This document shows positions 2,346-24,209 of a DNA stretch of 64,000 bases, in pieces. The DNA is taken from positions 2,874 through 66,873 of the forward strand of contig JAVBMC010000069.1 of NCBI GenBank assembly GCA_031552845.1, read 5' to 3'. The notes beneath the pieces are model-generated. The model was not told the DNA's origin, did not search any database, and was given only the letters and a program-made list of their open reading frames with translations. A program made the position numbers and the translations under genes. This stretch comes from Kiritimatiellia bacterium. GTDB taxonomy: Bacteria > Verrucomicrobiota > Kiritimatiellia > RFP12 > DVOR01. The number at the start of each line of letters is the position of its first letter. Positions within the stretch are counted from its first letter, which is position 1.

Positions 2346-2597
2346 GTGCCTCGTACTTTTTCAACATACGCGTTTTTTGAGCGTATTATGCAGTGCCGTC
2401 AGCGGCAACACTCGGTTGAAAAACAGGAGATATTTACTGCGTTAACCGATGGTACGTAGCATCGTACCGCGCAGCACGTACTATCCATTTGCGCAGCAGG
2501 TGCTGCGTGTTTGGACAGCGGGTGCTGCAGTTTTGTATAGCACGTGCTATCGTACTGAAACATGGAAGGCTTGGGGGTGTTGTAACGACGAAAATTA

Positions 2598-2684
2598 TGT
2601 AAAGGGTCTGTTTTAATGCAATCGCCCAAAAACAAAGGGTACATTTTGCCTTTGTTCTTGGGGTGATGGGAATGGGTACGTTTT
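2598..2684. repeat. Left-end putative transposase-binding sites
   Basis: AAAGGGTCTGTTTT (2601), AAAGGGTACATTTT (2634) and AATGGGTACGTTTT (2671); inverted counterparts at 32513-32582. Confidence 0.65.
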
Positions 2685-4752
2685 AATAAAGCTTTTCGAC
2701 AACCAAGCGCATCGCCTGAATATATAACGTTTCGCCGACGCTCCCGCTTTGTCTTAGCCGAAAATATGTAAATGCAGGCATATCGACATACCAAGACGCC
2801 TCAATACATTTACGATCGGCACTGATATGCACACCGTCTTGATTCGCCAGCCGAGTCGTTGGCGTGGTTGTTGGACCAGTCACCAGCTCCAAATTAAGCG
2901 TCTGATTGGTGGACATTGCAGTACTGAGGGTATAGCGAACGTCAACACGGTAAAATCCTTTCTTTCGGGCAGTCAGATAGGCTGTTGACCCGGATCCCGT
3001 CAAAGTGATGCAATCTGAACTTGCTGCCGGTGCCGGGAACTGCACATCCGTTGGAAATATACACACATTGGTTACCGTCGTCGAAACGGTCATACTAGTA
3101 GCACCAGTCCGTCCTGAACGCAGAAAAAAACTATCCTTTAGAGTTATTAGAGGGGCTATGGTGCCTTGAATCTCAACGATCTGTTTTCGAAGCCCTACGG
3201 TTACAGGCGGATCATAGAAGGTCGGTATCACTCCATAGTACTTTCCGTTCTGTTCGTCCCAAGGACGCTCACCGATTCCCCGACCTCTTTCTACCTCAAC
3301 GCGCCCAATGTAAGTATAAACCCCTTCGAAGGACGGGTCATAAAACCCGCCGAAGGCATCTAAATCACAAACGCGCAACACGTCAATATGCCCACCTGTG
3401 AAGCAATCATCGCCCAATCGCCCGGTGACCGCTGGCAGTTCCAATAAATCCGTGTGTAACCCGGCAAACGCCTTGTGTTCTATCCAAAAACATTTCGGCA
3501 ATTCAATTTGTGCACCCTCGGCAAAGATGCTTTCGACCTCTCCGTTAGACCAAATCCCGCCGAAAGCGCCAGCATCAATTGCTAAAACATTTGCACGGAA
3601 CCTTTTTATCAGCCGCTCATCCGGAGGCATTCGGTCACTAAAACTGTCCCCAATGGCTACGACCTGCTGCCCATCAATCATGTCCGGAATCGTAATCTCA
3701 TAATCCCAGTCCACCTCTGCACCGACAGCTTCATAAAACGCTTCTAGCAGTGCCCAATTCACACCATCAATTTGTAAACCATCTGGCAACTGGTCTCCGC
3801 ACAACGCCTGTTTATTAACCGGTGATGCAGTTAGGCACCAGGGCGGTGTTATGCCTTGTTCCCAATAACGTCGAGCCTCGGCTTTGTCAATCGCCTTAGC
3901 GGTGACACTGGTGGCGGCGTTGGTAGCGGCCTTGGACGATGCTGCGCTGGCGGCGATAATGGCGGTGCTGACATAGTTGGTGCTGGCTAAGGGTGCCAAT
4001 TGTGCGGGGATAGCGCTTAGTTGGGTTGATAGCCCGTCGACTGCGCCATGTGTGTATCCACTTAGATCTGTAAGAGCCGTTCGTAGTTCACCGCCCAAGG
4101 CATCGAGTTCTGCCGCCCGCGCCAACCCATTGGTTATCTCTGCCGTGACAAAGCCTGCCGCAAATACAGAGTTTGACAAGCTTCCAAGATTGGACTGTAC
4201 GCCGTCAACACTCGATGCTAGGATAGCCAGTTGATTGGCTGTGAGCGCTATGGCGTCCTGGACATCTTCCATTTTAGCGTACCCTGTCAGCCAGGTCACC
4301 GGAACTGGAACTGCCGTGGAAGGGTAGTTAAGACCGGACAACTTCAATTGGCCCGATGCCCGGACGATCCGTGCGGATCCATCCGTGGCGGCCACTTCAA
4401 GCGTCCAAGTGCCGGAGGTGAAGTTTGCTGGTAACCATTGTGACGTGTTCACTCGAACACCCACCACGCCCATCCTAATCACCGAACCGCTTACCTGGTA
4501 GCTTTGCCCGCCGGGCATATTGTTCGTGGTAGCGTGTAACGTCACCGTGCAGCCATTTAGATCCATCGGTGCCGCATAGCTGGTCAGCTTGCATTCAAGG
4601 TCGATCACCTCGCCGCGCCGGAGATCCAGCGTTTTATCGCTGGGTGCCGAAGTCTCAACTGACCAAGACAGCTTGGGAACGGTTTGGGCGGGCAAGTTGA
4701 TACAACCGCCGAGAAGGCATAACGCCATCAACATCATGTGCAGCATTTTCAT
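2683..4752 (-). CDS. Tail fibre/receptor-binding-like protein with N-terminal lipobox, BppU-like domain and BspA-type LRR insert
   Basis: Last gene of the tail operon; signal MKMLHMMLMALCLLGGC; Ala/Thr-rich helical stalk; LRR-like motifs ITIPDMIDGQQVVAIG, IDAGAF and IEHKAF; beta-rich C-terminus. Confidence 0.55.
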   Translation of the reverse strand: MKMLHMMLMALCLLGGCINLPAQTVPKLSWSVETSAPSDKTLDLRRGEVIDLECKLTSYAAPMDLNGCTVTLHATTNNMPGGQSYQVSGSVIRMGVVGVRVNTSQWLPANFTSGTWTLEVAATDGSARIVRASGQLKLSGLNYPSTAVPVPVTWLTGYAKMEDVQDAIALTANQLAILASSVDGVQSNLGSLSNSVFAAGFVTAEITNGLARAAELDALGGELRTALTDLSGYTHGAVDGLSTQLSAIPAQLAPLASTNYVSTAIIAASAASSKAATNAATSVTAKAIDKAEARRYWEQGITPPWCLTASPVNKQALCGDQLPDGLQIDGVNWALLEAFYEAVGAEVDWDYEITIPDMIDGQQVVAIGDSFSDRMPPDERLIKRFRANVLAIDAGAFGGIWSNGEVESIFAEGAQIELPKCFWIEHKAFAGLHTDLLELPAVTGRLGDDCFTGGHIDVLRVCDLDAFGGFYDPSFEGVYTYIGRVEVERGRGIGERPWDEQNGKYYGVIPTFYDPPVTVGLRKQIVEIQGTIAPLITLKDSFFLRSGRTGATSMTVSTTVTNVCIFPTDVQFPAPAASSDCITLTGSGSTAYLTARKKGFYRVDVRYTLSTAMSTNQTLNLELVTGPTTTPTTRLANQDGVHISADRKCIEASWYVDMPAFTYFRLRQSGSVGETLYIQAMRLVVEKLY

Positions 4753-4779: not shown

Positions 4780-6156
4780 TTAGCGGTGGCTGTCATGGCG
4801 ATCAAAAAACCGCGTGAGGCCACCGTCAAAGTTTAACCTGATTTCACCTGTTGGGCCGTTACGCTGTTTGGCAACGTCGACAATCGCCAACAGTTCATCC
4901 CCGCATTCCTCATCTCCCGGATACTTGCACGGACGGCGCAACAATAATACCACATCGGCATCCTGCTCGATCGCACCGGAATCGCGCAGATCCGACAGCT
5001 TGGGCTTGCCCGTCTTGTTGCCGTGCTGTTCGGAGTTACGGCTCAACTGCGACAGCACAATCACCGGGATATTCAACTCTTTAGCCATCGCTTTGACATT
5101 GGCCGAGATCTGCGCCGTCTCAATCTGGCGCCCCTGCCGTGCAAACTCACGATGGTTCATCAGCTGAAGGTAATCGATCACAATCAGTTCGATGTTGTGC
5201 TTTTTCTTCATACGGCGTGCCCGTGCCCGCATTTCCATCACATCGATGCCGCCTGTATCGTCCACAAAGATAGGCGCCTTGGACAGCGTAGCCGCGCCCT
5301 GCGATAGCTGGTACATGATCTTATTCTGGTTGACCAGCCCCGCATCCAGCTGCCAACCCGCTACGCCGGAAACCCCGCAAAGCATACGCTGCGCCAGCGC
5401 TCCCTGGGACATTTCTACGCTGAACACACCCACCGCATGAGGCCGATCGTGTTCACCCTCAAACTTGTTGCCGTCCATATCGCGTCCCAAGGCCACACAT
5501 TCGGCAATGTTCATCGCCAAAGATGTTTTGCCCTGGGAGGGACGGGCTGCCAGCACGATCATTTCAGCCGGACGCAGCCCCTTCAGCTTTTTGTCGAGGT
5601 TCTTTAATCCCGTCGGTAGTCCCATCAGGCCATTGGGCTGTCCAAAGATTTTCTCAACATGTGTGATCGTTTCACGGACCGCACCGCTCCAACTAACACG
5701 TGCCTCGGTATTGTCGCCCAAAGCAAGAAAAGCCTGCTCGGCGTGCCCAAGAATCAGATCCGCACTCTCCACCTCATCGTAACACTCGCCCTCAGTCTTA
5801 CGAACCGCCGATAGGATAGAGCGCAGCAGGTGCTTTTGGCGAACGATGTCAATATAGTACTCCGCATGTGCCGATGTTGGCGTACGATCAATCAGCTCTT
5901 CGAGGAACCGCATGCCGCCCACTTCGTTCAGGCGTCCGTTGACAGATAGCCGCTCGACAAGCGTCACAAGGTCGACTGCCTGCATTCCGGCCATCATCTG
6001 TTGTATGGTCTTGAACAGTTCAGCGTGTGCCGGCACATAGAACGTTTCTGGGGTAAATCCCTTTTCAAGGCATAGATCCATCACCCGATTGGCATCGAGT
6101 AAGATGGATCCCAAAACACCACGTTCGGCTTCCAAGCTCTGGGGCGGCAGTCTCAT
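4780..6156 (-). CDS. dnaB: Replicative DNA helicase DnaB, full length
   Basis: PPQSLEAERGVLGSIL N-domain, Walker A ARPSQGKT, FSVEM, IVIDYLQL, LSQLSR, DLRDSGAIEQDAD, KQRNGPTG. Start at ATG 6156 after AAAGGAAA. Confidence 0.97.
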   Translation of the reverse strand: MRLPPQSLEAERGVLGSILLDANRVMDLCLEKGFTPETFYVPAHAELFKTIQQMMAGMQAVDLVTLVERLSVNGRLNEVGGMRFLEELIDRTPTSAHAEYYIDIVRQKHLLRSILSAVRKTEGECYDEVESADLILGHAEQAFLALGDNTEARVSWSGAVRETITHVEKIFGQPNGLMGLPTGLKNLDKKLKGLRPAEMIVLAARPSQGKTSLAMNIAECVALGRDMDGNKFEGEHDRPHAVGVFSVEMSQGALAQRMLCGVSGVAGWQLDAGLVNQNKIMYQLSQGAATLSKAPIFVDDTGGIDVMEMRARARRMKKKHNIELIVIDYLQLMNHREFARQGRQIETAQISANVKAMAKELNIPVIVLSQLSRNSEQHGNKTGKPKLSDLRDSGAIEQDADVVLLLRRPCKYPGDEECGDELLAIVDVAKQRNGPTGEIRLNFDGGLTRFFDRHDSHR

Positions 6157-6178
6157 TGGATTTCCTTTGTGTTGCATA

Positions 6179-9982: not shown

Positions 9983-10691
9983 TCTGGATTGCCTTATGCT
10001 TTTGGACTATGGCTTTCTTCGTGCGTGCCAATGCGCCAAGCGCGGCGTTTAAGTCATCATCCGGAGCCTTCGAGACGCCGCCAAAGATGCCCGCGCGGAT
10101 CTCCAAGCAATGACGATAGGCCGAAAACACCGCCCGCGCCGATTTCTTCCACAGCCACGTCTCCGCTGGAATACCGCTCTGGACTTCGATGGCGCCAATG
10201 ATCTTCACCCAAGCATCGCGGATTTCTACGCCTTGCTGTTTCTTGCTGGGCGGCGGCGCATCGCTGCGCCCCAGCACCCAATCCACCGCCGCTTCCAGCT
10301 CTGCCCGTGAGCAGGTAACGCCCAGCGCCCAGGCGTGAACCCGTTCATAAGCCTCTTCTTTGTCGGTCAGCGTGGTAAACACGTTTTCCCGGCTATGTGC
10401 CAAGGCAAACGCGATTGCCCAAAACATCCACGTGTCGGACGCCTTCCACCAAACCTCTGCATACGTTTCCAGCCAGATTGCCGCGCCCACCGACAGCGGC
10501 CACAGATAGACGGCAGTGCTGGCCACCGGACACGGAACGCCAATGAGGTCTAGGCGTTGGCGCGGATCCGGATGCAACACGTTCTCACAGGCGGCATGTA
10601 AGCGCAGAATGTCAGCCGTGTCCGGCGTAATCCCGCGCTCACGCAGATCCGCGAGTGTCGCCTCTAAAAGCTGGCTGGGCTGAGAGGTCAT
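9975..10691 (-). CDS. Putative tail assembly chaperone
   Basis: Position between tail tube and tape measure. Confidence 0.5.
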   Translation of the reverse strand: MTSQPSQLLEATLADLRERGITPDTADILRLHAACENVLHPDPRQRLDLIGVPCPVASTAVYLWPLSVGAAIWLETYAEVWWKASDTWMFWAIAFALAHSRENVFTTLTDKEEAYERVHAWALGVTCSRAELEAAVDWVLGRSDAPPPSKKQQGVEIRDAWVKIIGAIEVQSGIPAETWLWKKSARAVFSAYRHCLEIRAGIFGGVSKAPDDDLNAALGALARTKKAIVQKHKAIQNG

Positions 10692-11413
10692 GCGGCTGCT
10701 TCAGCTGAAATATGTTTGGTGAGGCTGACAGACGCCTTCGTGGCTGCGGTATTACTCTGATCAGAAAGCCCCAGCGAATCCACGTGCCAGTCAGACGCCA
10801 CCGTGTAATCAGTTGCTGGATCCGCATGGCCTGTCATGTCAACTTGCAAGGTTTCCACGCCATCGTGGTTGTCGCCTGCCAAGTGCCCGCCTTCGCCATC
10901 CTGTTCGTCGACGTGCGTGCAGGCCAGCGTATAGTTGTACCCGCGCATGCCCAGCTCGGTTTCATCGTCCAGCTCGAACACCGGTACGCTGCCGTTGCTG
11001 GGAATCTGATCGCCCACTCCGAACCGTGCCGGTAACTTGATCGTAGAAGCATATTGACGGCAGGATCCCGCCGTGTGGCCGTTCCCTGCAATGTGCTTGT
11101 GTCCGTTGACCGTCAGCGTCGGCCAGCCTGTGGGCGAACCCGCTACGGAAATGCTGTCAATATGCCAGCCCGTGGTGGTCACCATGCCGACTTTCGGCAG
11201 CACTAAGCTGCCCGTGGCCTTTTCGCAGATATAGACACAACTGCCGGACGCCGCCTTGCCGTAACCCTGCTGTGCGATCGCGTCACCAGACGAACCCAAT
11301 GCCACCGCCAACTGTTCAGTTGTGGCCGGGTTTGCGCCTGTTTGGAGTTTCCACTCCGCGCCCGCCAATCCAAAAACATCTGTCGGTGTAAAAAATGGAA
11401 CTTTCTCGCTCAT
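10688..11413 (-). CDS. Putative major tail (tube) protein
   Basis: Gly/Thr-rich beta protein of 241 aa after the head-tail joining genes. Confidence 0.55.
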   Translation of the reverse strand: MSEKVPFFTPTDVFGLAGAEWKLQTGANPATTEQLAVALGSSGDAIAQQGYGKAASGSCVYICEKATGSLVLPKVGMVTTTGWHIDSISVAGSPTGWPTLTVNGHKHIAGNGHTAGSCRQYASTIKLPARFGVGDQIPSNGSVPVFELDDETELGMRGYNYTLACTHVDEQDGEGGHLAGDNHDGVETLQVDMTGHADPATDYTVASDWHVDSLGLSDQSNTAATKASVSLTKHISAEAAA

Positions 11414-11874
11414 ACCAATGCTCTCCTAATTACAAATGTGATCTTATAACAAGCCAATGTCGTGCCATCCGGTGCGCTGGCCTGCTGTGTGCGTTCATAA
11501 CAGCTGCGTTTCTCCACCGTGTTGTCATTATTCGGGATCTCCCAGTGCGTCAAAATCCGTTCGATGTGTTCGCAGAGATCAAACAACGTTTGACCATCGC
11601 CAAGCTTCTGCGCTGCGCCCGCGTCTGCCGCCAAAGGTGCCCGCTTATACAACCACACCGCAAAGCGCGTGGTCACCGGCACAGCTCCGGCAGGCTGTGT
11701 ATCAATCCGATCCTGCCCTTCATAAGCCAGAATCATCTCGCCGCCCGCCTTCATCGCCAGAATGCGCGTCAACGGCTCCGTCGGATCGGCGGCAATATGA
11801 CACTTCATCCGGTTCAGTTCCGCTTCAGACTCTAGGCGCTGTTTCAACGCCTCCAATAAAACTTTAACTCTCAT
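11410..11874 (-). CDS. Putative tail terminator (Mu gp37-like position)
   Basis: Synteny after the gp36-like gene. Confidence 0.5.
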   Translation of the reverse strand: MRVKVLLEALKQRLESEAELNRMKCHIAADPTEPLTRILAMKAGGEMILAYEGQDRIDTQPAGAVPVTTRFAVWLYKRAPLAADAGAAQKLGDGQTLFDLCEHIERILTHWEIPNNDNTVEKRSCYERTQQASAPDGTTLACYKITFVIRRALV

Positions 11875-12263
11875 GCCATGAACCCGCCTTTACTCGGCGT
11901 TGCTTTTGTCGGCGTGGTGAGACAATCACCGCCGGACGCTTCACCATCCGGACGCTCGACACCCGCCGCCAAATTGATCAGCCGCTTTTCAGCTGCCGCC
12001 GCTTGCTGTGAAAAAGGATTCCGATCGCCGGAGTAACCCCTCCGGCGATACAGAATCTCTAAACAGAAGACCTTCAAGGCGTAATCAGAAGCCAGCTTCC
12101 ACATCTCCGGCGGTTCCCCGCCAAAGGCGTTGATCACACGCTCGCGCGCCGATTGCGTCACCGCAAACCAAGCCGCCTCATCAGCCTCGCCATCGCCGTT
12201 ATCATCCAATGCTTGAATCAGCGACTCGCGCGGCATTTCACCCTGAAGATCTTCCCAGTCCAT
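11871..12263 (-). CDS. Head-tail adaptor, Mu gp36/DUF1320-like
   Basis: LIQALDDNGDG N-terminus and helical C-terminus; follows the major head gene. Confidence 0.7.
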   Translation of the reverse strand: MDWEDLQGEMPRESLIQALDDNGDGEADEAAWFAVTQSARERVINAFGGEPPEMWKLASDYALKVFCLEILYRRRGYSGDRNPFSQQAAAAEKRLINLAAGVERPDGEASGGDCLTTPTKATPSKGGFMA

Positions 12264-13237
12264 TATTCCCCTCCGGTCCCGCCGCCAGACGCCGCATCAG
12301 GATCCACCCATGCAGTCACATCCTTGTCAGGATTGCCCATGTAAGCCAGGAACGGCAGCGTCATAAACGCCTCGCCACGCGCATCCGTCCCGTAGAGGAA
12401 CTTGTTGCCATTGAAGACGTTTGCGTCTGTGTCCTTGTCCAGGCGCGTCAGCACCGGCTCTTTGCGCTTTTGGACGCAGACGGCCTTGATACCGTTCTTC
12501 TCGCCCACGATAAACCACGACTTTTCGTGTGTGCCGACCAGATCCTCTGCCACACGCACCTTCAGGTTAATGGCAGGGGAAGTGTTGGAAACGCTCGTGG
12601 TGCCGTCGCTGATCAGTGTCGCCTCGCAGATCCGCTTGGCCAGCGATTCCAACGCAGGACCAACGACCAACACAACCGGACGGACGCCTGCCGTCTGATC
12701 GCCATTCAGCTGCCAGCCGCGCATCGTTGCCATCGCTGCTTCAACGGCACTCTGCGACAAAGCCGCTTTGGAAGCGTTGGTGACCGTATTCCTGCCGAAC
12801 TTACGCCCGGAACAGAAAAACTTGTTGCCGTCCGCCCAAAGATCATTGGCAACCATCGCGCCAACCGTCAGTTGTAGCCACAGCTTTGCAGCCGCTGCGC
12901 CCATGCTGGCGATCAACTGCGCGTAGACGCCATAGGCATCATCTTCGATTGCATTACGCGGCACCTCAACCGTGCTCTCAAAAGGCCGGTTGACTACGGT
13001 CAGCAGTCCCAACTCCAAGGTGTTGATTACACGATCGCCAGCCCATTCCTTCATGGAGGGCAGCTGATTCAGCCACGCATGATTGGTAGCGGCACCGCCG
13101 GAGGGGACCAGCATAGCCACATCTTCAACCAGCAAGTCATTTGCATTGACCCGCTCATCAGCAGGCGCCATTGCGGCATTAAACTTGGCGTTGAATGTCT
13201 GAAACAAGGCATCCATCGTTGCTTTATTCGTATCCAT
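12263..13237 (-). CDS. Major capsid protein, Mu gpT-like
   Basis: WLNQLPSMKEWAGDR, NRPFESTVEVPRNAIEDDAYG and QKRKEP motifs of the Mu-like gpT family. Confidence 0.9.
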   Translation of the reverse strand: MDTNKATMDALFQTFNAKFNAAMAPADERVNANDLLVEDVAMLVPSGGAATNHAWLNQLPSMKEWAGDRVINTLELGLLTVVNRPFESTVEVPRNAIEDDAYGVYAQLIASMGAAAAKLWLQLTVGAMVANDLWADGNKFFCSGRKFGRNTVTNASKAALSQSAVEAAMATMRGWQLNGDQTAGVRPVVLVVGPALESLAKRICEATLISDGTTSVSNTSPAINLKVRVAEDLVGTHEKSWFIVGEKNGIKAVCVQKRKEPVLTRLDKDTDANVFNGNKFLYGTDARGEAFMTLPFLAYMGNPDKDVTAWVDPDAASGGGTGGE

Positions 13238-13276
13238 AGATTTATAAAAACCTTTCTTGTTTGTTTCTACCCGGAC

Positions 13277-14248
13277 TTACTTGGCTTTCGTCGGCCAAAC
13301 CTTATCCGGATCCATCCCGCAGCTCAACGCGATCGTACGCGCCTCCGGCGTGATGCCTTCCGTCAAAGATGTTTCCTTGACGTTGCCCGGCGTGCGTGCA
13401 TGCAGCGGCACGGTCACAGCCAACGCCTTCACGTGCTCTTGGAGGGATGCCAGCGACATCTCGCCAACCGCCGTTGCGGACAGCGCCACAACCTTACCCT
13501 CGGCCTTGGCAGCATCCAAGACCGCTTGCTTATCGCGTTTAAGCAGCTCGCCCTGCAAACTGACAAGACCAGCCGACAACGGTGCTACTGCCGCCTGAAC
13601 GGCTTCCTGAATGGCGTCCGTTGCGTCCGGCGCCGTCTTAGCTGCCGCATCAAGCGCAGCCTGAATGTCTTCATCGCTTGCATCGGACGCAAGGCCCAGC
13701 AGCGCGATCAACTTGGATTTGTAATCCATGTGTGATGTTCCTTTATTGTTGTTAAAATGCGGCCACGCATTCAGCGGCGCCGCCGTGAACTCCATATCCG
13801 GCACTGCGCCCGTACGGCAGAGTGCCACCGACATGATCCCAACTGCCTCACCTGCCTTGTCGACGATAGGTGCGGCCGAAACATCGATATAATTGTGGGC
13901 GCTCTCAATGCCCAACGGCGTCCAGCTAACCATGGACAGATAGACGCCATCACCCGGAACGATCTCAATATGACCATAACCCGCCACCGGACGCGGCTCT
14001 TTGCTTTCTTTCCAGGCGGGCGTGCCCTCGACTGTGTTATGCTCGAAGTCCAAGGGAACCGTTCGGAAAGGATATTCCGGCGCAATGGAACTTTTCAAAA
14101 GCTTGTCACCGATAAAAATCCGCGTCTTGCGCGCATTAGGGTTTTCGCCCCAGTTCAAAACCTTAATCCGCTTCGGCAGCTTGCCCGGCTCCAAAACCGT
14201 GGGCACCGCCGCCGCCAAAACCAGTGAAAATAGATGTTGTTTGTGCAT
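13277..14248 (-). CDS. Prohead protease/scaffold, Mu gpI-like
   Basis: PLDFEHNT, YIDVSA and SVALC motifs; Ala-rich scaffold-like C-terminus. Start chosen at ATG 14248. Confidence 0.85.
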   Translation of the reverse strand: MHKQHLFSLVLAAAVPTVLEPGKLPKRIKVLNWGENPNARKTRIFIGDKLLKSSIAPEYPFRTVPLDFEHNTVEGTPAWKESKEPRPVAGYGHIEIVPGDGVYLSMVSWTPLGIESAHNYIDVSAAPIVDKAGEAVGIMSVALCRTGAVPDMEFTAAPLNAWPHFNNNKGTSHMDYKSKLIALLGLASDASDEDIQAALDAAAKTAPDATDAIQEAVQAAVAPLSAGLVSLQGELLKRDKQAVLDAAKAEGKVVALSATAVGEMSLASLQEHVKALAVTVPLHARTPGNVKETSLTEGITPEARTIALSCGMDPDKVWPTKAK

Positions 14249-14283
14249 GGGCAAAAGTCTACCATAACACAAGCTTTACCACT

Positions 14284-14302
14284 CGCGGGTGCGGGGCGTG
14301 TG
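14284..14302 (-). promoter_or_regulatory. Putative late-promoter activator site upstream of the protease/capsid operon
   Basis: CACACGCCCCGCACCCGCG, 18/19 identical to 32533-32551. Confidence 0.65.
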
Positions 14303-14308
14303 AGCGAC

Positions 14309-14339
14309 AAAAAAAGCCGCCCCAGTGACGGGACGGCTT
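14309..14339 (-). terminator. Rho-independent terminator after the gpG-like gene
   Basis: Minus strand GCCGTCCC-GTCACT-GGGGCGGC followed by T7. Confidence 0.8.
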
Positions 14340-14364
14340 CGTTTTAAATTTGAAAGACGGTTGG

Positions 14365-14778
14365 TTATTTTAGCAGATGGTTCACCATCGCTTCAACTGC
14401 GTCTTGGATTACATCTAAGGCTTGTGGGGCGATTTCGCCACTCGTATCTACCGGGAAGTAAGGCCGTGCCGGGAGATTGCGTGGTTCATAGCCATAATTC
14501 TGTGCGCAGGCATACGGGCGGTCTGTGCCGACCGCGATTGCATCCACGCTCAAAGGTTCCAGTTGAAGGCTCTTACACAGCAGACCCTCTTTTTGGAGTG
14601 TTGCCTCCGAACCATCTTTCTTCGGCGGCCATGGTGTAAGGCGGCGTACAGGGTCAGTCCAAGACAGCTCCGATTCGCTTTGCAGTGCCATTCCAGACGC
14701 AATCAAGATCGGTGTTTTATCCCGCAGCTTGTAGATCAGCCGCGCCAGTTCCGGAGAAACTTCATCAATGAGGTTCAT
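14365..14778 (-). CDS. Virion morphogenesis protein, Mu gpG-like
   Basis: LQKEGLLCKSL, VGTDRPYACAQNYG and PARPYFP motifs. Confidence 0.85.
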   Translation of the reverse strand: MNLIDEVSPELARLIYKLRDKTPILIASGMALQSESELSWTDPVRRLTPWPPKKDGSEATLQKEGLLCKSLQLEPLSVDAIAVGTDRPYACAQNYGYEPRNLPARPYFPVDTSGEIAPQALDVIQDAVEAMVNHLLK

Positions 14779-15004
14779 CAGCCGATTCCTCCCGCAGCCA
14801 TTTCAAAATACGCGGCCACCGTTCCTCAGATGGAATCAGCCGACCCCGTGCCTCGTTCTCACGGTGCCACCGGTTCACTGCGTCAATCAATTCGCTCAGG
14901 CGGGCTGACTGCTCCGGTGTCGGACGCGTCTTGCCATCCGTGGGCAGATTCAGCTTGCGGACCTCCGCCTCAAATTCATCCTGGTCAATGATACGTTCGT
15001 CCAT
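14765..15004 (-). CDS. Small hypothetical protein downstream of MuF (candidate immunity protein)
   Basis: 79 aa, 2 nt after the MuF stop, overlaps the next gene. Confidence 0.6.
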   Translation of the reverse strand: MDERIIDQDEFEAEVRKLNLPTDGKTRPTPEQSARLSELIDAVNRWHRENEARGRLIPSEERWPRILKWLREESADEPH

Positions 15005-15006
15005 GG

Positions 15007-16158
15007 CTAAAATGTCCTTTTGATTTCAGTGTAACGGATGAGACCCGCATCTTCAAGCTTTTTAAGCGCGTCACGGTAGTTTTTTCGGAAGTGAGCCAAC
15101 AGCAGTACCATCTCATCGGCATCCAAGCGGATCGGTTCCAAAACCTCCACCACGCTGTACCGCGTCTCCCCCACCACCGTCAGCCGCTGGCAGGCATCGC
15201 TATTCGCCAGCGTGGTCGCCAGATCCTGCGGACTGACCAGATGGTCGCCGCCCGGATGATTGTGCAGCACCGCCATCCGCACCTGCGCCGCCCGCGCCAC
15301 GTCAAAGATGTTGCCTTCGCTCACGTAATCATTTGTGCCGTGGCTGCGGGCAACCACATCGCCTGTAGCATAATCCCGGGCAATCAGCCGTTCGGTCTTC
15401 AATCCCTTCACCTCCGCCAGATCCTTCCGGTCGTAATCCTGCCACAGCCAATCCCAAGCCGTCTGTTCAGGGTTGCCATACGTCTGCACCGGCGTCTTAC
15501 GCATCGCCGCACAAAAACACATCCACTCCGCAGGCAGATACTTTTCTTTCACCTGATCCAGATTCACCGTCAGGTTCTTCGGATGAAAGCCATACCCTGA
15601 CTTCGCTGGCGCTCCCGGTAGTTTACTCACGTCACACACGCCGCCCAAACCCTCAGCTTGCCTTTTTGTCAGCTGCGTAACCATGCAACGACACCCCCAT
15701 TCCCACGGCGGATAGTGAGTATCCCACCACGGATCATCCGCCGGAACAATCTTGCCGTCCAGCTCTTTATGCCCGTCACGCACCCTATCGTCATTCATGC
15801 AGCTATACCGCCAATACGGAAAAATAACAGCCATGTACTGTTGTTGCGAATACCGTCCGGCGGAATAAGCTTGAAAGCCGTTGACACGCAAAAGTAGCTC
15901 TGCCCGCGCCTTTGCGCCTTGCTGGTCGCCGCCGATCACAGCGGCAATACCGTTTTTGATTTTGCTCCAATCGCCCCCTGCTGGCAGCTCGGCAATCATA
16001 TCGCGGATCCGCGCTAACGCCTGCAAGTCCTCAATTCCGGATGCCGTGAAAGCGCGCACCTTCAACGCCGCTGGCAGTTGTCCGAATGCTTCCGGATTGA
16101 TTGCTGCCTTCCCGCGAATATAGCGGATGGCCACTTCATTATCGACTACGTCTAACAT
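15007..16158 (-). CDS. MuF (gp30) head morphogenesis protein with C-terminal JAB/JAMM-like domain
   Basis: MuF motifs DRVRDGH and YPPWEWGCRC; C-terminal HNHPGGDHLVSPQD matches HxHx7Sx2D. Confidence 0.85.
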   Translation of the reverse strand: MLDVVDNEVAIRYIRGKAAINPEAFGQLPAALKVRAFTASGIEDLQALARIRDMIAELPAGGDWSKIKNGIAAVIGGDQQGAKARAELLLRVNGFQAYSAGRYSQQQYMAVIFPYWRYSCMNDDRVRDGHKELDGKIVPADDPWWDTHYPPWEWGCRCMVTQLTKRQAEGLGGVCDVSKLPGAPAKSGYGFHPKNLTVNLDQVKEKYLPAEWMCFCAAMRKTPVQTYGNPEQTAWDWLWQDYDRKDLAEVKGLKTERLIARDYATGDVVARSHGTNDYVSEGNIFDVARAAQVRMAVLHNHPGGDHLVSPQDLATTLANSDACQRLTVVGETRYSVVEVLEPIRLDADEMVLLLAHFRKNYRDALKKLEDAGLIRYTEIKRTF

Positions 16159-16167
16159 TTATGCCTC

Positions 16168-16665
16168 CTATGCAGTGAATACGCCTACCTTACCAAGACC
16201 GCTTGCTTCCAATTGACGAAGTAAAGATGCCTCTTGCTCTGAAAATGCCACAAGGCACGATGGCGCATTGGCAGAATTGCCCTGTTGGCCGTCGACGTAA
16301 TGAAATCGAAGCCGCCCCTTAATAAACAAGATGGTTGCGCCAGCTTGAAAAATATCCTCTTGAAAGCCACGTGTTTCTGTCCGTGCAAAAATCAATGCCA
16401 ATCCACTGCCGCCTGTTTGGCAATGTTCACGGAGGCGTTTAATCCAGTTAAATGTTTCACGGTCATACGGCGGATTCAGCCACACGCGCCCAATCCACGG
16501 ATGCGCGAGGCCGTCCTCTTCTTTGGTGTAATGATATGTAGCCGTATCCCAAGGCCTGTTAATCGGCACACAGGGATCTAAGTCAAACTTACCAAGCTGT
16601 TTCAACAGGCTGGGCGGCGTAAGCCATTCGTCATTGTTCACAGTATTGGTATTAAAGTTTTTCAT
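16168..16665 (-). CDS. Phage DNA N6-adenine methyltransferase
   Basis: DEWLTP, FDLDPC, VWLNPPY, ALIFARTET and FIKGRLRF motifs. Start at ATG 16665. Confidence 0.85.
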   Translation of the reverse strand: MKNFNTNTVNNDEWLTPPSLLKQLGKFDLDPCVPINRPWDTATYHYTKEEDGLAHPWIGRVWLNPPYDRETFNWIKRLREHCQTGGSGLALIFARTETRGFQEDIFQAGATILFIKGRLRFHYVDGQQGNSANAPSCLVAFSEQEASLLRQLEASGLGKVGVFTA

Positions 16666-16666
16666 C

Positions 16667-17185
16667 CTATTCCTTCCGCTTCCATCCGCCCATGCCATTG
16701 GCCTCTAAGTAATGGCGCCGCTCATCGCCATCCTCATCCCAGAAATCCGGATCATCTGCACAGGCTGCCAGATGACGGAACCAACTGTCCAACTCCAACA
16801 ACCAACACCCCGGCGACACGTGGTGCATTTCGATATAACCGGCACGGTTCAACCGTTTCAATGTTTCATACTTCCGGCCTCGATCGAGATCACGAAAGCC
16901 AAGCTCTGTACAAAGGCTAATCGATAACCGAATATATTTGCCCCCCAGCGGGATCGGTACAAAGCCGCCTTCGTTTTTTTTCTCCACCCAACGGCAAAGC
17001 GTATAGGTTGGCGGCTGTTGACCATTCTTAGGCGTCCAGACAAGTTTATCCGGTGCAATTCGCACCATCACCGGCTCGGCCAACTCTCGGAACTTTTTTG
17101 AGGCCGCTTCCACATCGGGCGACTTTTTAGGTTTCACCTCCTCATCGCCATCCCAAAAGGTCTGTTGAACGATATTTTTACTCAT
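16667..17185 (-). CDS. Hypothetical protein (candidate late activator by position)
   Basis: ATG 17185 after GGAGG; near the end of the early operon; function inferred only. Confidence 0.55.
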   Translation of the reverse strand: MSKNIVQQTFWDGDEEVKPKKSPDVEAASKKFRELAEPVMVRIAPDKLVWTPKNGQQPPTYTLCRWVEKKNEGGFVPIPLGGKYIRLSISLCTELGFRDLDRGRKYETLKRLNRAGYIEMHHVSPGCWLLELDSWFRHLAACADDPDFWDEDGDERRHYLEANGMGGWKRKE

Positions 17186-17398
17186 CTTGCACCTCCGCTT
17201 GTCGGTTATCGGCTTAACAGCCACGAGAAGCCACGGGAAACGAGGGGGAAATGACTTTAAGAGGGCGGACATAAAAATATAGCCCCCCTCCCCATCCCCC
17301 CATCTTAAAACGCACGAAAACACTGTTTTTAGAATCGCGCTGCGGACGCGGATATGACCCTGCGGTTTGCACCGCCGTGAATTGCGGCTGTAAAAAAA

Positions 17399-17914
17399 TC
17401 ATTTGCGCTTCTTTCCGCCACGATTGCGTAAAGTAAACAGCACACTCCACACCTGTTTGGCGGTTGCTTGTTTGCGGGTTGTCTTGTGGATCTTCACAAA
17501 CAACGAATCAACGTACCGCGCCACGCCATCGACGCCACCGAACGCATCCACCCAAACCTTCTCTTCGTTCGATAGCGCATTGTTCGCCCGGCGCCATTCA
17601 TCGGCGGATTGCATCGCCTCCGGACTTGCGGGAACACCCCGCGCCGCCACCGTCCCGGCCAGCTTGGCAAAGTAGATGCGGACTTTCGAGTACTCACGTT
17701 GGTTGATCAGCTTAAAGCTGGTCTTGTGGCAAGCATCCCACAGCGCGCCTTTGCGGAACACGTCGAAACTCTCATCGTCCACCAACCCCAGCCGTTTCTG
17801 TTCATCATAGGCTTTATGCGCCACGATGATCAGATCCCGCTTCTGCGTGTTGGTGATAAAGCAATCACCTTGCCCTCGCACCGCCTGATCTGCTTTGTTG
17901 TCATCCTTTTTCAT
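17399..17914 (-). CDS. GemA/DUF1018-like early protein
   Basis: LGLVDDESFDVFRK...TSFKLI...YFAKL resembles GemA; early operon position. Confidence 0.5.
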   Translation of the reverse strand: MKKDDNKADQAVRGQGDCFITNTQKRDLIIVAHKAYDEQKRLGLVDDESFDVFRKGALWDACHKTSFKLINQREYSKVRIYFAKLAGTVAARGVPASPEAMQSADEWRRANNALSNEEKVWVDAFGGVDGVARYVDSLFVKIHKTTRKQATAKQVWSVLFTLRNRGGKKRK

Positions 17915-18073
17915 CGTCACTCCTCTCTTCCTCTCCGCGCCTCCGCGTCTCCGCGTGAGCTTCACCCACCTACTCGCGTTAGCCTCTCAACTTATTACCT
18001 ATTACTTCTTACTTCGCTCTCGTCTTGGCTTCAAATATCCGAGGCGGTGTTACCCGCCCCGGCGGTTTCCATG

Positions 18074-18241
18074 CTAACCCTTTTTCTTGCGCGTTTTCTT
18101 CGGCTTATCCGCTGCGGGCGTCTTCGGCTCTTCAGCCGGAGTTTCCGCTGCTGTGCCCGAAGGAATCGGCAATCCCTTCGGCGGTTTAACCGCCGTGCTC
18201 TTAACGGCAGTACTCCTGCGTTGCGTCCATTTAACTGGCAT
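18074..18241 (-). CDS. Small basic Pro/Lys-rich protein
   Basis: ATG 18241 after GGAGG, directly after the Gam stop; ends KPKKTRKKKG. Confidence 0.5.
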   Translation of the reverse strand: MPVKWTQRRSTAVKSTAVKPPKGLPIPSGTAAETPAEEPKTPAADKPKKTRKKKG

Positions 18242-18242
18242 T

Positions 18243-18764
18243 CTATTCACCTCCTCCCTCTTTGGCTGGGCTGACATAAAAGCTTTCCTGCCGCTCAATA
18301 CGCAGCCCAACTTTCCGTAAATCTTCGACGGTCAACTTACCGCCTTGAAAATCACCAAGGATCCGTTCTTTGTCTAACTCGACCTTCTCGCGGGTGTAAA
18401 TCTGCAAATCCGGATCCGTCTGCACCAGTCCCAGCGTATACTCAACCTTGACGCCCGTCAGCTGCTTAACCGCCGGAGTACCGGAACGAAAGCCGATGGA
18501 TCCGTGAATCAGATCCAGCCGCTTCTTATCGCCGAACTCACCGAGGTTCAGCGACGCCCAAGCCATCATGTCATTGTACAGCTCATCGACTTGGCGTTTC
18601 AATTCTGTCAAAGGTGCCTCATACTTGGTACGAAGTTCAGTGATCTGTTCTTCCAAGCTCAACTGTTGCTTGTTGTACTCAATCAGAATTGAACAGTACT
18701 CGCCAAACACGCCCTCCAACTGCTCGCGGGTACTGATTGTTGTCTTTGTAGGTTTCTTTGCCAT
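18243..18764 (-). CDS. gam: Host-nuclease inhibitor, Mu Gam-like
   Basis: LDLIHGSIGFRSGTP, YTREKVELDKE and QESFYV motifs. Confidence 0.85.
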   Translation of the reverse strand: MAKKPTKTTISTREQLEGVFGEYCSILIEYNKQQLSLEEQITELRTKYEAPLTELKRQVDELYNDMMAWASLNLGEFGDKKRLDLIHGSIGFRSGTPAVKQLTGVKVEYTLGLVQTDPDLQIYTREKVELDKERILGDFQGGKLTVEDLRKVGLRIERQESFYVSPAKEGGGE

Positions 18765-18775
18765 TGTCTTATCTC

Positions 18776-19369
18776 CTAGTATTTGAGCCGCATCCCAAGT
18801 TTAATGTCCCAGACATCACGATCGGTAATGCCAAGGTCATTCTTGCAAATGTGGCGTTTGATTGATACAATCCTGAACTTCAGGTTAAACTGGGTATAGC
18901 CGCGAGCGAAACAAACCTTGGTGAACTTCTTTTGAGACAGCAGTTTGTTCCAGTGGCCCGAAGTCTCGCGGTACTCGTGGTCCTTTTCGCCGCTCTCCAT
19001 CTGATCATACCACTTGTGTTTCAGCACCATGTAGAGTGTGGAGTTATCATCGAGCAGTATGCCATCGCCACAAGCCGTCCGCGGATAGAAGTGATTAAGC
19101 AGCCGTCCCGTTTCCGGCTGCTTCTCGATATTATCGTCAATCCCCAGCACATCATGAAGCAGGGTGAAGCCATCCGCATCCAAAAGCCTTTCAAAGTCAA
19201 TCGCGGCACCGTAGCCATGACAGGCCAACAGGCTCATGTGGAGTTCTTTGCGTGAAGGCGGCTTGCACCCGGACGACCGAATCAGCTGCATCACCTTCGT
19301 GATACAGCGTGAAGCCAGCCGCAAATCCTTGGCACTCATCTTCTCGCGGAGTAAAGCAAAGTCAATCAT
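18776..19369 (-). CDS. Two-domain protein: small phage domain fused to ASCH-like domain
   Basis: N-half IDFERLLDADGFTLLHDVLGI...GRLLNHFYPRTA; C-half LKHKWYDQMESGEKDHEYRE...VCFARGY (ASCH/PUA-like). Confidence 0.6.
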   Translation of the reverse strand: MIDFALLREKMSAKDLRLASRCITKVMQLIRSSGCKPPSRKELHMSLLACHGYGAAIDFERLLDADGFTLLHDVLGIDDNIEKQPETGRLLNHFYPRTACGDGILLDDNSTLYMVLKHKWYDQMESGEKDHEYRETSGHWNKLLSQKKFTKVCFARGYTQFNLKFRIVSIKRHICKNDLGITDRDVWDIKLGMRLKY

Positions 19370-19378
19370 AGCACCTCC

Positions 19379-20338
19379 CTAGATTTTCGCCGTCCGCCGC
19401 ATGGACACATCCGATACCGCCTGCGAGACCGCTTGAATCGACAGCCCCGCGCCGATCAGCTGTTTGGACACGTCCCGAACAAACGCCAGGGCGCCGTTAT
19501 TCTGTGCAGCCGGGCGGATCATCTTGGCCGCCGCGTGCAGCTCTGCCTTTTCGGCCTCCGGGAAGATGTTCTTTAAGTAGCCTTCAACATCTTTCACATC
19601 CAAACCCAGCTTGACACGTGCGCTGATCCGATTGGTCGACAGCTGACGCGCCTCAGAGAAAGCGGCTTTGTACAACTTTGCCCACATCTCCGGGATGCCA
19701 ATTAAGACGAACTCACCGGGTGTGCGGTTGACAAGCGTCTTGATCACGTTGAGGCACTTCGGTCCCATATGATGTGCCTCATCGATGATGATGCAACGCC
19801 GGGAAACCTTCAGCAGTTCCATGACGCGCGATAAACGGCTCACGCCACGGAAAGGCGGTGTCAGTTCGCCGAGTTCCACCAGCAGATCCCCCAACAATGC
19901 CGCAGGCGAATCGTTCCACATGCAGTTGGCTTCGATCATCAAAACACGCTTGCCGTACTTTCCGCAGAGGATCCGCGCCGAGGTTGTCTTGCCGCATCCG
20001 CTTTCACCGTCAACGAACACCACCCGGTCAGTGCCCCAGCTCTTCATCGCACCAACCGCCGCCAAACGTACCGCATCCACGCCCGGCAGGTTGTCGTACT
20101 GCTCTTCGGCCGAACCCTCGCCCGTCAACGCCTGGATCAACGCCGCCGCCGCGCGGTAGTTCGCCAGCTGGGCATCAACGTCATAGCCTGCTGTTTTGCC
20201 CGCTTTCATATCGCGGAAGGTTTTCTCACTGCCCAGTCCTGGATACTCTTTTACAAGCTTGGCGATGCCGATGCCCTTACGGGTAGCGTAATCGCTCATC
20301 ACCGTTGCCAACTCCATCAGTTCTTTATTCTGTTCCAT
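19379..20338 (-). CDS. Transposition ATPase, MuB-like AAA+
   Basis: Walker A GESGCGKT, Walker B CIIIDEAH; downstream of the transposase. Confidence 0.9.
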   Translation of the reverse strand: MEQNKELMELATVMSDYATRKGIGIAKLVKEYPGLGSEKTFRDMKAGKTAGYDVDAQLANYRAAAALIQALTGEGSAEEQYDNLPGVDAVRLAAVGAMKSWGTDRVVFVDGESGCGKTTSARILCGKYGKRVLMIEANCMWNDSPAALLGDLLVELGELTPPFRGVSRLSRVMELLKVSRRCIIIDEAHHMGPKCLNVIKTLVNRTPGEFVLIGIPEMWAKLYKAAFSEARQLSTNRISARVKLGLDVKDVEGYLKNIFPEAEKAELHAAAKMIRPAAQNNGALAFVRDVSKQLIGAGLSIQAVSQAVSDVSMRRTAKI

Positions 20339-20365
20339 ACTCTCTCTCCTTTTCGTTTGTTACTG

Positions 20366-20482
20366 TTACTTCAACCATGCGATGATTCTCAACACCGCCA
20401 AAATTATCATTCCTGCCACACTCACAAAAAACAACACGCCCGCCGAAAAATCCACCCGATCCCCTGTGTCTTCGTCTCTCAT
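20366..20482 (-). CDS. 38-aa single-TM peptide between transposase and MuB
   Basis: Manually translated: MRDEDTGDRVDFSAGVLFFVSVAGMIILAVLRIIAWLK; fills the intergenic gap. Confidence 0.55.
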   Translation of the reverse strand: MRDEDTGDRVDFSAGVLFFVSVAGMIILAVLRIIAWLK

Positions 20483-20497
20483 GGTTCAGCCCCTTCG

Positions 20498-22168
20498 CTA
20501 ATACAAAACAACGCCGCTTTCCTCGCGTGCCCAATCAATCGGCTTGGGCGCAGCCTCCGGCTTCGGTTTCGGTAGCGTCACCACGGGCGCCACCTTGACC
20601 GGCTTAATCCGCCCGCGCTTGTCATAAGCGCGCGCCGTGCGACCGATCAGCGCGGCAGACGCTTTCTTGACCGCCGTACCCAGCACTCGGCCATCAGTAG
20701 AGAACGCCCGCCACCCGTCACCGCTGCGCTCGACGCACGGCGCCACAGAAACACACGTGGCCGCCTCTGCTATTACGTGCCCCTTCGGCCATTCGCAAAA
20801 CTTCTTGGCCAAGGTCAGCTGCGCGCCGTTGCCGATCTCCGCCGGATCAAAAGCAACCATGACCCGCGCACCCTCAAACAAATACCCCTCCTCACAAGCA
20901 AACTGATAGGGCAGCTTAGTTTCCAGCCCAAACGGTGCCTCAGTTTTAACCTCGATCATCCCGCCACGTAGCATCGTGCGCACCTCACGGACTGGCAGAG
21001 CGTAAGCGGCCATACCATCCGGTAAGCGGTGACCTTTGTGCAGCTGCGCGCCGTAAACCTCTGACGGCACCCAGCGCCCATAAGTAGCGGACTGCATCAC
21101 CTCATCATTCAAGTACCGCACGCTCTTATCAATCAGCTCCAAGGTTTCGCTGAGGGATAAAAACAGCGTCCGCGGATCCCGCGCACCTTCCCGGCAGGCC
21201 GTCCAGTTCGCCGTCTCTTTGACCAGCTCACCGCGGAACCGCCCAACATGCCCGCGCGGCTCTAGCGCGGACTGAACCGTCCAAAGGCGGTTGAAGTAAC
21301 CCTCCACCAGCTTTTGGTTAGGACGCCCCTTAGCCGAGATTGAGGAAACGCCTGCCGCCTTCACAAACGCCTTCACGCGCTCGCTCTGCCACACGCCGCC
21401 CTCAACTACCAACTCATTAGGGGCGTAACCAATATCCCGCCAGCAGCGCTGCAAGGCCGAAGCTACGTCCGCCGCACGGTAAGCATCATTCGCACGGCGC
21501 ACGTAAGACCAGCCCACGCAGAAATCGGTGGCGCAGTCAATCCCCAGCAGTAGCTGATAGCGCGCCAAACGGACACCGAACTTATCACTGCACTTATCCC
21601 CACCCTGCGGCCAAGGCACGTAGCACCCAAAGTTGATACTGGCGTCATCCCACACCTGCCGCTCGCCCGGCACCAAGCGGCGGGAACCATCCTGCACCAT
21701 CCGCAAAAAGCCCGGTACGTAAATCCCGTCATTCTGGCCTGCCTTGGGATTGCGATACTTCGCCACCACCGCACGGCCCAGACGCATGGCGCGTTTGATC
21801 GCGGTGGGCAAAGCGTGTTTATTAGACAGCCCAAGAATCACTTGGCGGGTTTCCGGGCGAAGCGGTGACTGCTCATCCTTCGCCGCGATACGCGCCGCGG
21901 CTGTCATGCTGCCTGCCTCTTTGCCGCGATTCGAGCGGATGTAAACCTCAGCCAAATACTTCGCCTCGGCATCGTTCAGCTCCACCTTGGGCGGACGCCC
22001 CGCGCGCGGTAATTCCTGCGCACCATGCAATCCAGCCGCTTCTATTCGCTCAGTCCACCGACGATACCAGGCTTTCGAGACATCCACCCGGCGCAACGCC
22101 TCATCCAGCGTCAGCCCGTGGCCTTGCCAAGTGCGGATCAGATTCAGTGTTGCAACCGGATCTTTCAT
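20498..22168 (-). CDS. Phage transposase (MuA/Tn552-related DDE family)
   Basis: N-terminal HTH, RNase H-fold motifs QVWDD, LLGID, LVVEGG and KLVEGYF; C-terminal beta domain. Confidence 0.9.
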   Translation of the reverse strand: MKDPVATLNLIRTWQGHGLTLDEALRRVDVSKAWYRRWTERIEAAGLHGAQELPRAGRPPKVELNDAEAKYLAEVYIRSNRGKEAGSMTAAARIAAKDEQSPLRPETRQVILGLSNKHALPTAIKRAMRLGRAVVAKYRNPKAGQNDGIYVPGFLRMVQDGSRRLVPGERQVWDDASINFGCYVPWPQGGDKCSDKFGVRLARYQLLLGIDCATDFCVGWSYVRRANDAYRAADVASALQRCWRDIGYAPNELVVEGGVWQSERVKAFVKAAGVSSISAKGRPNQKLVEGYFNRLWTVQSALEPRGHVGRFRGELVKETANWTACREGARDPRTLFLSLSETLELIDKSVRYLNDEVMQSATYGRWVPSEVYGAQLHKGHRLPDGMAAYALPVREVRTMLRGGMIEVKTEAPFGLETKLPYQFACEEGYLFEGARVMVAFDPAEIGNGAQLTLAKKFCEWPKGHVIAEAATCVSVAPCVERSGDGWRAFSTDGRVLGTAVKKASAALIGRTARAYDKRGRIKPVKVAPVVTLPKPKPEAAPKPIDWAREESGVVLY

Positions 22169-23205
22169 TTGCGGCGTCCTTTGCTCTTGCCTGCCTTTTG
22201 CAGTTCGTCTGTTTCCATGATCGTCTTTAGGAGGTTCCAGACATCCATCGGTGCCGACCGAAGCGCTGCGTCCAATTCCTTCAAAATCTTTTCCCGCGTT
22301 TCCTGGGTAATTTCACGGCACCAAATGACATCATCTTCAACCTCAAACGTGCGGCGCAATGCGGTTGCAGCCCTCAGCACAATTCCGCCATAATCGGTGG
22401 CGGCACGCTCGGTTCCCTCCGTTGCTGACCGTCCCTTGAGTGCAGCCGCCCATCGCCGGATTGGCGTGCGCCCGCCCATCACGTCTAGGTAAGTGCGGTT
22501 GATATGATCGCTCACCGCTGGATCATCTGCCGGAATAATCACGGTGCGTCCATCGGTCAAGCGCTTCGGCAGCCCCCCTTCAATCCTTGCAGCCGCCAAC
22601 TCAATCCCTTTTGACACATCCTTTCGGGAACACCCTAGGCGGGCGGCGATTACGCCCGCCGAAAAGACTGGGTCATGTGACTCACCCTTTGCCGGGGAGG
22701 GGTAGTCACGTGACGAACCCTCCCCATTGTGCTTTCCGCGGGCACCTGTGGCGGCTGGGTTTTGATCCGCCTTCCACGTTTTCAAAATAGCATCGCAGTG
22801 TAAATCAATGTACCGCATAATTCGTTCCCCGGCAGTGATACGGCGGCGAAAAGCGTTTTTGGAAAGGGCGATGTGGCGGACTTTGTCGATGTCGATCTCA
22901 TAGATGCTACATGCAACTACCTCCAATCCAGCATACCGCGCAGCCTTTAGACGCCCACAACCATCCAGCACCCAGTACTCATCCGTCGAGCTAAACTTTA
23001 GGCTCACCATCAGCGGTTCCAACAGGCCATGCTCGCGAATATCATTGACCAATGCCGCGCTATCCTCTTCCTCATCCTTCTCACGATGCAACCCCCAAAA
23101 AGCGGCAGCATCCGGATGCGCCTCTAGTTTGTCCAATGCAATCATTTCCGTGCGGATAAACTCAGGCCGGACGGGTTCGTATTGTGTTGCTTTCTTCATG
23201 GTCAT
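22165..23205 (-). CDS. ParB/Srx-like N-terminal domain protein with HTH
   Basis: DIREHGLLEPL and VLDGCGRLKAA (GxxRxxA); IAARLGCSRKDV HTH. Confidence 0.75.
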   Translation of the reverse strand: MTMKKATQYEPVRPEFIRTEMIALDKLEAHPDAAAFWGLHREKDEEEDSAALVNDIREHGLLEPLMVSLKFSSTDEYWVLDGCGRLKAARYAGLEVVACSIYEIDIDKVRHIALSKNAFRRRITAGERIMRYIDLHCDAILKTWKADQNPAATGARGKHNGEGSSRDYPSPAKGESHDPVFSAGVIAARLGCSRKDVSKGIELAAARIEGGLPKRLTDGRTVIIPADDPAVSDHINRTYLDVMGGRTPIRRWAAALKGRSATEGTERAATDYGGIVLRAATALRRTFEVEDDVIWCREITQETREKILKELDAALRSAPMDVWNLLKTIMETDELQKAGKSKGRRK

Positions 23206-23975: not shown

Positions 23976-23996
23976 GGGTTTCTCCTTTCGATTCAG

Positions 23997-24194: not shown

Positions 24195-24209
24195 CTCGCT
24201 TCCTTTCGT

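Follow-up and report, generated by a model that had tools for sequence, protein, structure and literature searches.

Mu-type phages are the textbook example of a virus that replicates entirely with the restart primosome and the replisome of its host, and the locus described here raises the question of why one of them should carry a replicative DNA helicase gene, dnaB, at the end of its late genes. The gene lies in a 64-kb stretch of DNA from an uncultured gut bacterium of the Kiritimatiellae, the whole of which was analysed and is called the window below, and an earlier note on this sequence had taken it for a captured helicase of host-like type. Our analyses give good support to the view that a Mu-like phage captured a cellular dnaB.

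Extent and ends of the prophage

The prophage is Mu-like and spans approximately 30 kb. Its genes run from about 32.4 kb down to 2.7 kb, on the minus strand except for a plus-strand cluster at 24313-27226, and host genes (sulfate permease, holB and tmk) follow from 33.3 kb on (Table 1). The head genes present are of Mu type, namely gpT capsid, protease I, MuF and Mu portal (PF10124, PF10123, PF04233 and PF06074). The putative transposase has no rve or MuA match in Pfam or PDB, and tblastn against GenBank phages returned no match for it; its homologues adjoin MuB-like genes in related phages.

Both ends of the element carry candidate terminal sites. The 11-mer GGGTACNTTTT occurs four times in the 64-kb window, against 0.1 expected, and its copies form two inverted clusters that bracket the phage genes: two plus-strand copies (2637 and 2674) follow closely on the stop of the 689-aa gene, and two minus-strand copies (32513 and 32569) stand a short way upstream of the first phage ORF. 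A 22-nt inverted repeat beginning TGTAAAGGGT (2594-2615 / 32568-32589) goes with these clusters, and together they are arranged as transposase-binding sites would be at the two ends of a Mu-type element. The related phage L009 has a comparable motif, GTACCCTTTT...CGTTACA, just beyond its last called gene and near the contig end. The uncertainty in the prophage termini is 17-40 nt. A search of the flanks gave no clean target duplication of 5 bp, the best candidates being AATTA / AAATA (a 4/5 match) for termini 2598 and 32585. The Mu-type genes and the inverted terminal GGGTACNTTTT repeats support the identification of a Mu-like transposable prophage, in agreement with the earlier note. That note had also considered that the region left of 6180 might not be prophage; the element in fact extends down to approximately 2581-2598.

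Table 1. Features of the prophage and of the dnaB insertion, with positions in the window
Feature	Position	Strand	Basis or remark
Prophage end, tail-fibre side	2581..2690		Transposase-site-like repeats AAGGGT(A/C)(C/T)NTTTT at 2602, 2635, 2672; terminus 2581 or 2598 (TGTAA...)
BppU-like tail fibre or receptor-binding protein, 689 aa	2683..4752	minus	Lipoprotein-type signal peptide; last gene before prophage end
dnaB, cellular-type replicative DNA helicase, 458 aa	4780..6156	minus	Pfam, PDB, homologues
Spacer, 22 nt, ahead of dnaB ATG	6157..6178	minus	SD-like ACAAAGGAAA at 6161-6170
ORFan, 310 aa	6179..7111	minus	S/T/N/G/Y/W-rich
Small conserved tail gene (234 aa)	7114-7818	minus	blastp, collinear with L007
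Small conserved tail gene (120 aa)	7822-8184	minus	blastp, collinear with L007
Tape measure protein	8186-9982	minus	PHROG match; collinear with L007
Rest of Mu-like prophage beyond tail genes	10688..32413	minus	
MCP gpT	12263-13237	minus	PF10124/PF10123/PF04233/PF06074 set of Mu-type head-gene matches
Protease I	13277-14272	minus	
MuF	15007-16158	minus	
Dam	16168-16698	minus	
Gam	18243-18764	minus	Clear match
MuB-like AAA (AAA_22)	19379-20338	minus	Clear match
Putative transposase	20498-22168	minus	phrog_310 E 4e-10, winged HTH, gene position
ParB-like	22165-23205	minus	
HTH regulator	23202-23975	minus	
Mu-type portal	27331-28839	minus	
TerL	28802-30430	minus	
TerS	30415-31089	minus	
Other prophage end	32505..32626		Same repeats inverted at 32513, 32569, 32598 (degenerate); terminus between 32585 and ~32626

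The phage belongs to a family from an almost unstudied phylum, and the order of its genes is unusual. The TerS/TerL/portal block (27331-31089) lies upstream of the regulator and the transposition module, apart from MuF (15007-16158). In the relatives L010, L012, L013 and L014 the genes likewise run directly MuA-MuB-(Gam)-MuF, an order unlike that of Mu, D3112 or B3, and the separation of terminase and portal from MuF is not read as a nested or rearranged prophage, since the MuA-MuB-MuF order is the same in these four relatives. Between portal and regulator, the plus-strand cluster comprises six small ORFs of low GC (38-54%); one encodes an HTH protein, a possible repressor, and the others, which have no family match, are candidates for accessory or exclusion genes.

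Several repeats were observed in and around the element. Direct repeats with a period of approximately 9 nt (CGAYYTCAY...) occur inside the prophage at 25391-25433 and 27227-27324, and a third copy lies outside it at 32871-32977, in host intergenic sequence 260-390 nt beyond the right prophage end; these could be operators, iterons or what is left of an older insertion. A 50-nt repeat, 74% identical and with the core CGCGGGTGCGGGGYGTGTG, is located upstream of two late gene blocks (14256-14305 and 32505-32554) and is a candidate late promoter or activator site common to both halves of the prophage. The left host flank (626-2086, minus strand) contains two paralogous lipoprotein-like genes of 239 and 236 aa, with a GC content of 42-45% and no family match, whose DNA repeats are 78-87% identical.

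The insertion site and the helicase gene

The position of dnaB is best seen by comparison with the related phage L007, which is collinear with the prophage gene by gene through MuF, protease, capsid, four small genes, tape measure and the 120-aa and 234-aa genes. In L007 the counterpart of the 689-aa gene comes directly after the 234-aa gene, whereas the window carries a further 2.3 kb in this place, consisting of the 310-aa ORFan and dnaB. Hence, the collinearity with L007, the inverted GGGTACNTTTT clusters and the phage-type 689-aa gene downstream together place dnaB inside the prophage. DnaB was found in none of 85 related Mu-like loci (664 kb), related prophages being where the earlier note had advised looking for it; the contexts of L008-L011, inspected separately, have neither DnaB nor the 310-aa protein, and searches of viral contigs with DnaB, the 310-aa ORF and the portal returned no relatives.

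The 310-aa ORFan has no homologue among 5.8e9 proteins and no Pfam or PHROG match, and a tblastn search of the 85 related loci yielded no homologue in any. Its single-sequence AF2 model is unusable (pLDDT 30). It probably belongs to the same insertion as dnaB. On the other side, the 689-aa protein has an N-terminal domain (approximately residues 8-170) that is common to 130 proteins with variable C-termini, and its homologues occur in the tail modules of the Mu-like phages L007, L009 and L010. Its AF2 model combines an N-terminal beta-sandwich (pLDDT >90) with long predicted helices (pLDDT ~40-70), and resembles, as modelled, the BppU, neck-passage and tailspike proteins of siphoviruses. Sec-type signal peptides begin both this protein, in which the lipobox is LLGGC, and its 130 relatives, which would not be expected of a virion protein that is put together in the cytoplasm. 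A motif, ...A(A/V)ARADHVHKG..., is duplicated in the 234-aa tail protein.

The 310-aa ORF, dnaB and the 689-aa ORF are all on the minus strand and closely packed, with 22 nt between dnaB and the stop (6179) of the first and 27 nt between dnaB and the ATG (4752) of the last. The description of dnaB as wedged co-directionally among tail genes with gaps below 30 nt thus holds for strand, spacing and location inside the late/tail region, but no evidence marks its upstream neighbour, the ORFan, as a tail gene. Starting instead at an in-frame ATG at 6177, 1 nt from the stop of the ORFan, would extend the reading frame to 4780..6177 (minus strand) and the product to 465 aa. The likely start is the ATG at 6156; ACAAAGGAAA precedes it, and the resulting 458 aa equal the length of the corresponding product, P0001, in the protein collection. 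The 10-mer ACAAAGGAAA has four exact copies in the 64 kb; the three on the minus strand (4758, 6161 and 31968) each stand a few bases before an ATG (4752, 6156 and 31961), and the observation that dnaB shares its SD with phage genes was therefore correct.

The product is a DnaB-family replicative helicase, judged by both of its domains and by its conserved residues. The Pfam matches cover the full length (PF00772, N-terminal, E 8e-26, residues 11-114; PF03796, DnaB_C, E 7e-86, residues 186-458), and the best PDB alignment (E 8e-87) extends over residues 3-452 with Thermus aquaticus DnaB 2q6t, end-to-end alignments being obtained also with 2r6a and 6bbm (DnaB structures, including those of Geobacillus and E. 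coli). Every column that is invariant among eight Kiritimatiellae DnaBs is kept, for example in A-R-P-S-x-G-K-T-S and S-D-L-R-D-S-G-A-I-E-Q-D-A-D, and the predicted catalytic residues (Walker A GKT/S, Walker B and the arginine finger region) are retained. At the 156 columns that are at least 97% conserved there are two departures, both common to P0002 and P0003, the two nearest homologues, and no private change. The gene can thus be regarded as full-length and intact, as had been claimed, and as constrained in the same manner as cellular DnaBs; because it is so, it is most likely expressed and used.

The affinities of the protein lie with the cellular DnaBs of Kiritimatiellae. Its nearest homologue is P0002 (88% identity), followed by P0003 (85%) and then by a continuum from 71% to 60%, and in a tree it nests among Kiritimatiellae DnaBs on a branch that is not lengthened. 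The best DnaB among 50,697 GenBank phage records is 37% identical and P1 Ban 36%, and a scan of genome contigs with DnaB recovered only distant DnaBs (37-58% identity). These comparisons support a cellular Kiritimatiellae type of DnaB and not a typical phage DnaB; together with the absence of the gene from related phages, they bear out the idea of a captured host-like helicase, and the phylogeny proposed in the earlier note leads to the same conclusion. Codon usage and GC3 do not separate phage from host genes, and consequently say nothing on the origin of dnaB.

The form of the gene departs from that of its cellular homologues at both ends. Homology to cellular dnaB extends from the ATG at 6156 to two codons short of the stop, and the protein has neither the N-terminal (MPRxA...) nor the C-terminal tail, both variable, of its cellular counterparts; the 22-nt spacer stands where the cellular homologues have their N-terminal extension. 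In two relatives dnaB is set in the array rpsF-ssb-rpsR-rplI-dnaB-bamA-ompH, and the canonical neighbours (L25, Pth, S6, SSB, S18, L9, BamA, OmpH and HisI) are absent from the whole 64-kb window, as had been noticed for the surroundings of the gene. P0003, encoded on a 58.4-kb NCBI contig, begins at the same trimmed position as the window DnaB (MRLPPQ), unlike the other aligned homologues, and may be another displaced or mobile copy of dnaB. The contigs of P0002 and P0003 contributed no cluster to the list of MCP homologues, so there is no sign of those DnaBs being carried by a related phage. Derived residues shared among P0001, P0002 and P0003 (counts of 2, 3 and 2) leave the branching order of the three unresolvable from this source.

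Possible uses of the gene and a probable dnaB of the host

The explanation that we favour, and consider on balance probable when taken as a whole, comprises the capture of the gene, its arrival in the 2.3-kb insertion and its retention for use, likely in supplying helicase for phage replication. A Mu-like transposable siphophage would have acquired a cellular dnaB from a host of the Kiritimatiellae lineage; the gene would have arrived with the 310-aa ORFan between two conserved late genes, and the copy would have been cut back to the conserved core of the helicase and have acquired the SD context of two other prophage genes. During Mu replication, the PriA/DnaT/DnaC restart primosome loads host DnaB at the strand-transfer intermediate (PMC3325207). 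Because replication of this type requires such loading, and would need the host replicative helicase at every strand-transfer fork, a phage-borne copy might enlarge or secure the DnaB pool while the phage replicates. A helicase approximately 88% identical to the cellular enzyme should fit the loader, primase and polymerase of the host. We infer, by analogy with Mu, that helicase supply for replicative transposition would be the most likely use. Two circumstances weaken this reading: dnaB stands at the far end of the late/tail genes, which is late for a function in replication, and the arrangement is a single occurrence in one metagenome assembly.

A serious rival, less probable in our view and nonetheless of real weight, is that dnaB is a passenger (moron) that takes no part in the replication of the phage. 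It may have been picked up by illegitimate recombination and merely carried, or it may be expressed from the prophage and benefit the lysogen, for example as a DnaB insensitive to the helicase-targeting proteins of competing phages. In the manner of a moron, dnaB occurs in one phage and is missing at the same position in the collinear relative, and its closest homologues are cellular genes of the host lineage; its place in the distal late region, beside an ORFan, is typical, and it is missing from all sampled relatives. Furthermore, the prophage has the same sequencing depth as the host, with no sign of lytic activity, and may be inactive. Against a neutral passenger stand the neatly trimmed ORF, the SD common to two other prophage genes and the unrelaxed conserved sites, features which point to a maintained function without saying for whom.

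An extension of the helicase-supply reading is doubtful. The phage DnaB might be a dedicated part of the hand-over from transposition to replication, making the phage independent of a limiting host helicase or allowing it to outcompete the chromosome for it, and the ORFan might be a loader or adaptor at strand-transfer forks. Were this true, it would be the first known case of a transposable phage supplying some of its replisome itself. Of the roles suggested in the earlier note, nothing was found in favour of one in the virion, and assistance to or competition with host DnaB is unsupported here.

The question of another dnaB was approached through run X1, which comes from an invertebrate gut metagenome and is alone among public runs in containing the window sequence. 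Besides the prophage gene, X1 contains further dnaB contigs, 80-85% identical to it in DNA and with different flanks; most of the listed differences affect third codon positions. Where two of these contigs run beyond the match, their translations read ILRTPPQNLD and GAPSTAKGKS, in exact agreement with the two terminal junctions, N and C, of P0002, and the depth of the two (11.0 and 10.7) compares with 10.7 for the contig with the prophage dnaB. A dnaB of canonical type, with host-like tails at either terminus, hence occurs in this sample and is as abundant as the prophage gene. To judge from the equal depth it probably belongs to the host, which very probably keeps its canonical dnaB. This second dnaB, found in the metagenome where the earlier note had advised a search of the host genome, argues against the view that the prophage gene is the bacterium's only functional copy, moved into the prophage or surviving only there and thereby locking the element into the genome. 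No rplI-dnaB-bamA locus occurs in the 64-kb window, which says little on the rest of the genome, and the prophage copy is as constrained as a cellular DnaB; with P0002 in the same run, at the same depth and with different flanks, we consider a sole dnaB very unlikely.

The assembly was assessed with an independent one of run X1, in which one contig (Logan, 18,113 nt, depth 10.7) spans window positions 1-17958 unbroken, so both dnaB junctions are reproduced by a second assembler, and its depth compares with 11.9-12.2 for the host flank, which indicates a single-copy, integrated prophage. That a chromosomal dnaB was joined to phage sequence at a conserved stretch, in assembly or binning, is scarcely credible: central dnaB (~4950-5010) is common to many organisms of the metagenome (depth up to ~600 at 80% likeness) and other dnaB contigs break there, but the two assemblies agree, positions 1-17958 have even depth, each junction falls at a tight gene boundary and has an SD resembling that of two other prophage genes, homology to cellular dnaB ends at the ends of the ORF with no remnants of rplI or bamA, and a chimera at the conserved core would not put phage sequence on both sides of a complete ORF.

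Two short contig joints (344>7557 and 5187>6886) were disregarded, having only 21-22 matching letters on one side. Elsewhere, Logan contigs break at 17931-18020 and 33103-33157, where depth jumps to ~100 and ~140-170; these are short sequences common to many genomes or elements in the sample. Rfam gave no RNA match in the right flank (32400-33400). Two metatranscriptomes from the same study contained no sequence from the dnaB/prophage region.

Comparison with known systems

Phage-encoded DnaB helicases are common, P1 Ban being the classic temperate example, and host-derived auxiliary genes in phages are well known. In the literature searched, no transposable phage was described as having a DnaB of its own. 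What is new here is the combination, in one metagenomic instance, of a near-cellular DnaB, a transposable phage and a position among tail genes. A host-compatible DnaB in a Mu-type phage suggests that the supply or loading of helicase can limit replicative transposition, and the phage offers a natural construct for testing such a limitation. The case also illustrates well how a phage can take over an essential housekeeping gene in intact form and, to judge from the conserved columns, keep it under purifying selection.

P1 Ban resembles the window DnaB in being a full-length, DnaB-family hexameric helicase, borne by a temperate phage and homologous to that of the host, and the two align over residues 5-457. 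They differ in that Ban is 36% identical to the window protein, whereas the latter has 88% identity with a cellular DnaB from the host lineage and lies among Mu-like tail genes; P1 replication, moreover, proceeds in plasmid form or through theta and rolling-circle modes, and not by transposition. The phage helicases of PHROG 19 (from lambdoid and SPP1-like phages and streptococcal prophages) share the family match (phrog_19, E 5e-91), but these belong to diverged lineages, at most 37% identical, and stand in early replication modules beside initiators or loaders, whereas the window gene is in the late region with no adjacent loader or initiator. The cellular Kiritimatiellae DnaBs are closest, at 60-88% identity, and share their domains and every invariant residue with the window protein; they have variable tails and the canonical rpsF-ssb-rpsR-rplI-bamA neighbours, and the window copy, in its prophage, has neither.

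With the Mu-like phages the window prophage shares capsid, protease, MuF, portal, Gam, a MuB-like AAA protein, a putative transposase adjacent to it and inverted terminal sites. It differs from Mu in its terminase and portal block, which in this family is set apart from MuF, and in carrying a dnaB of its own, where Mu uses the DnaB of its host by way of the PriA-dependent restart primosome (PMC3325207).
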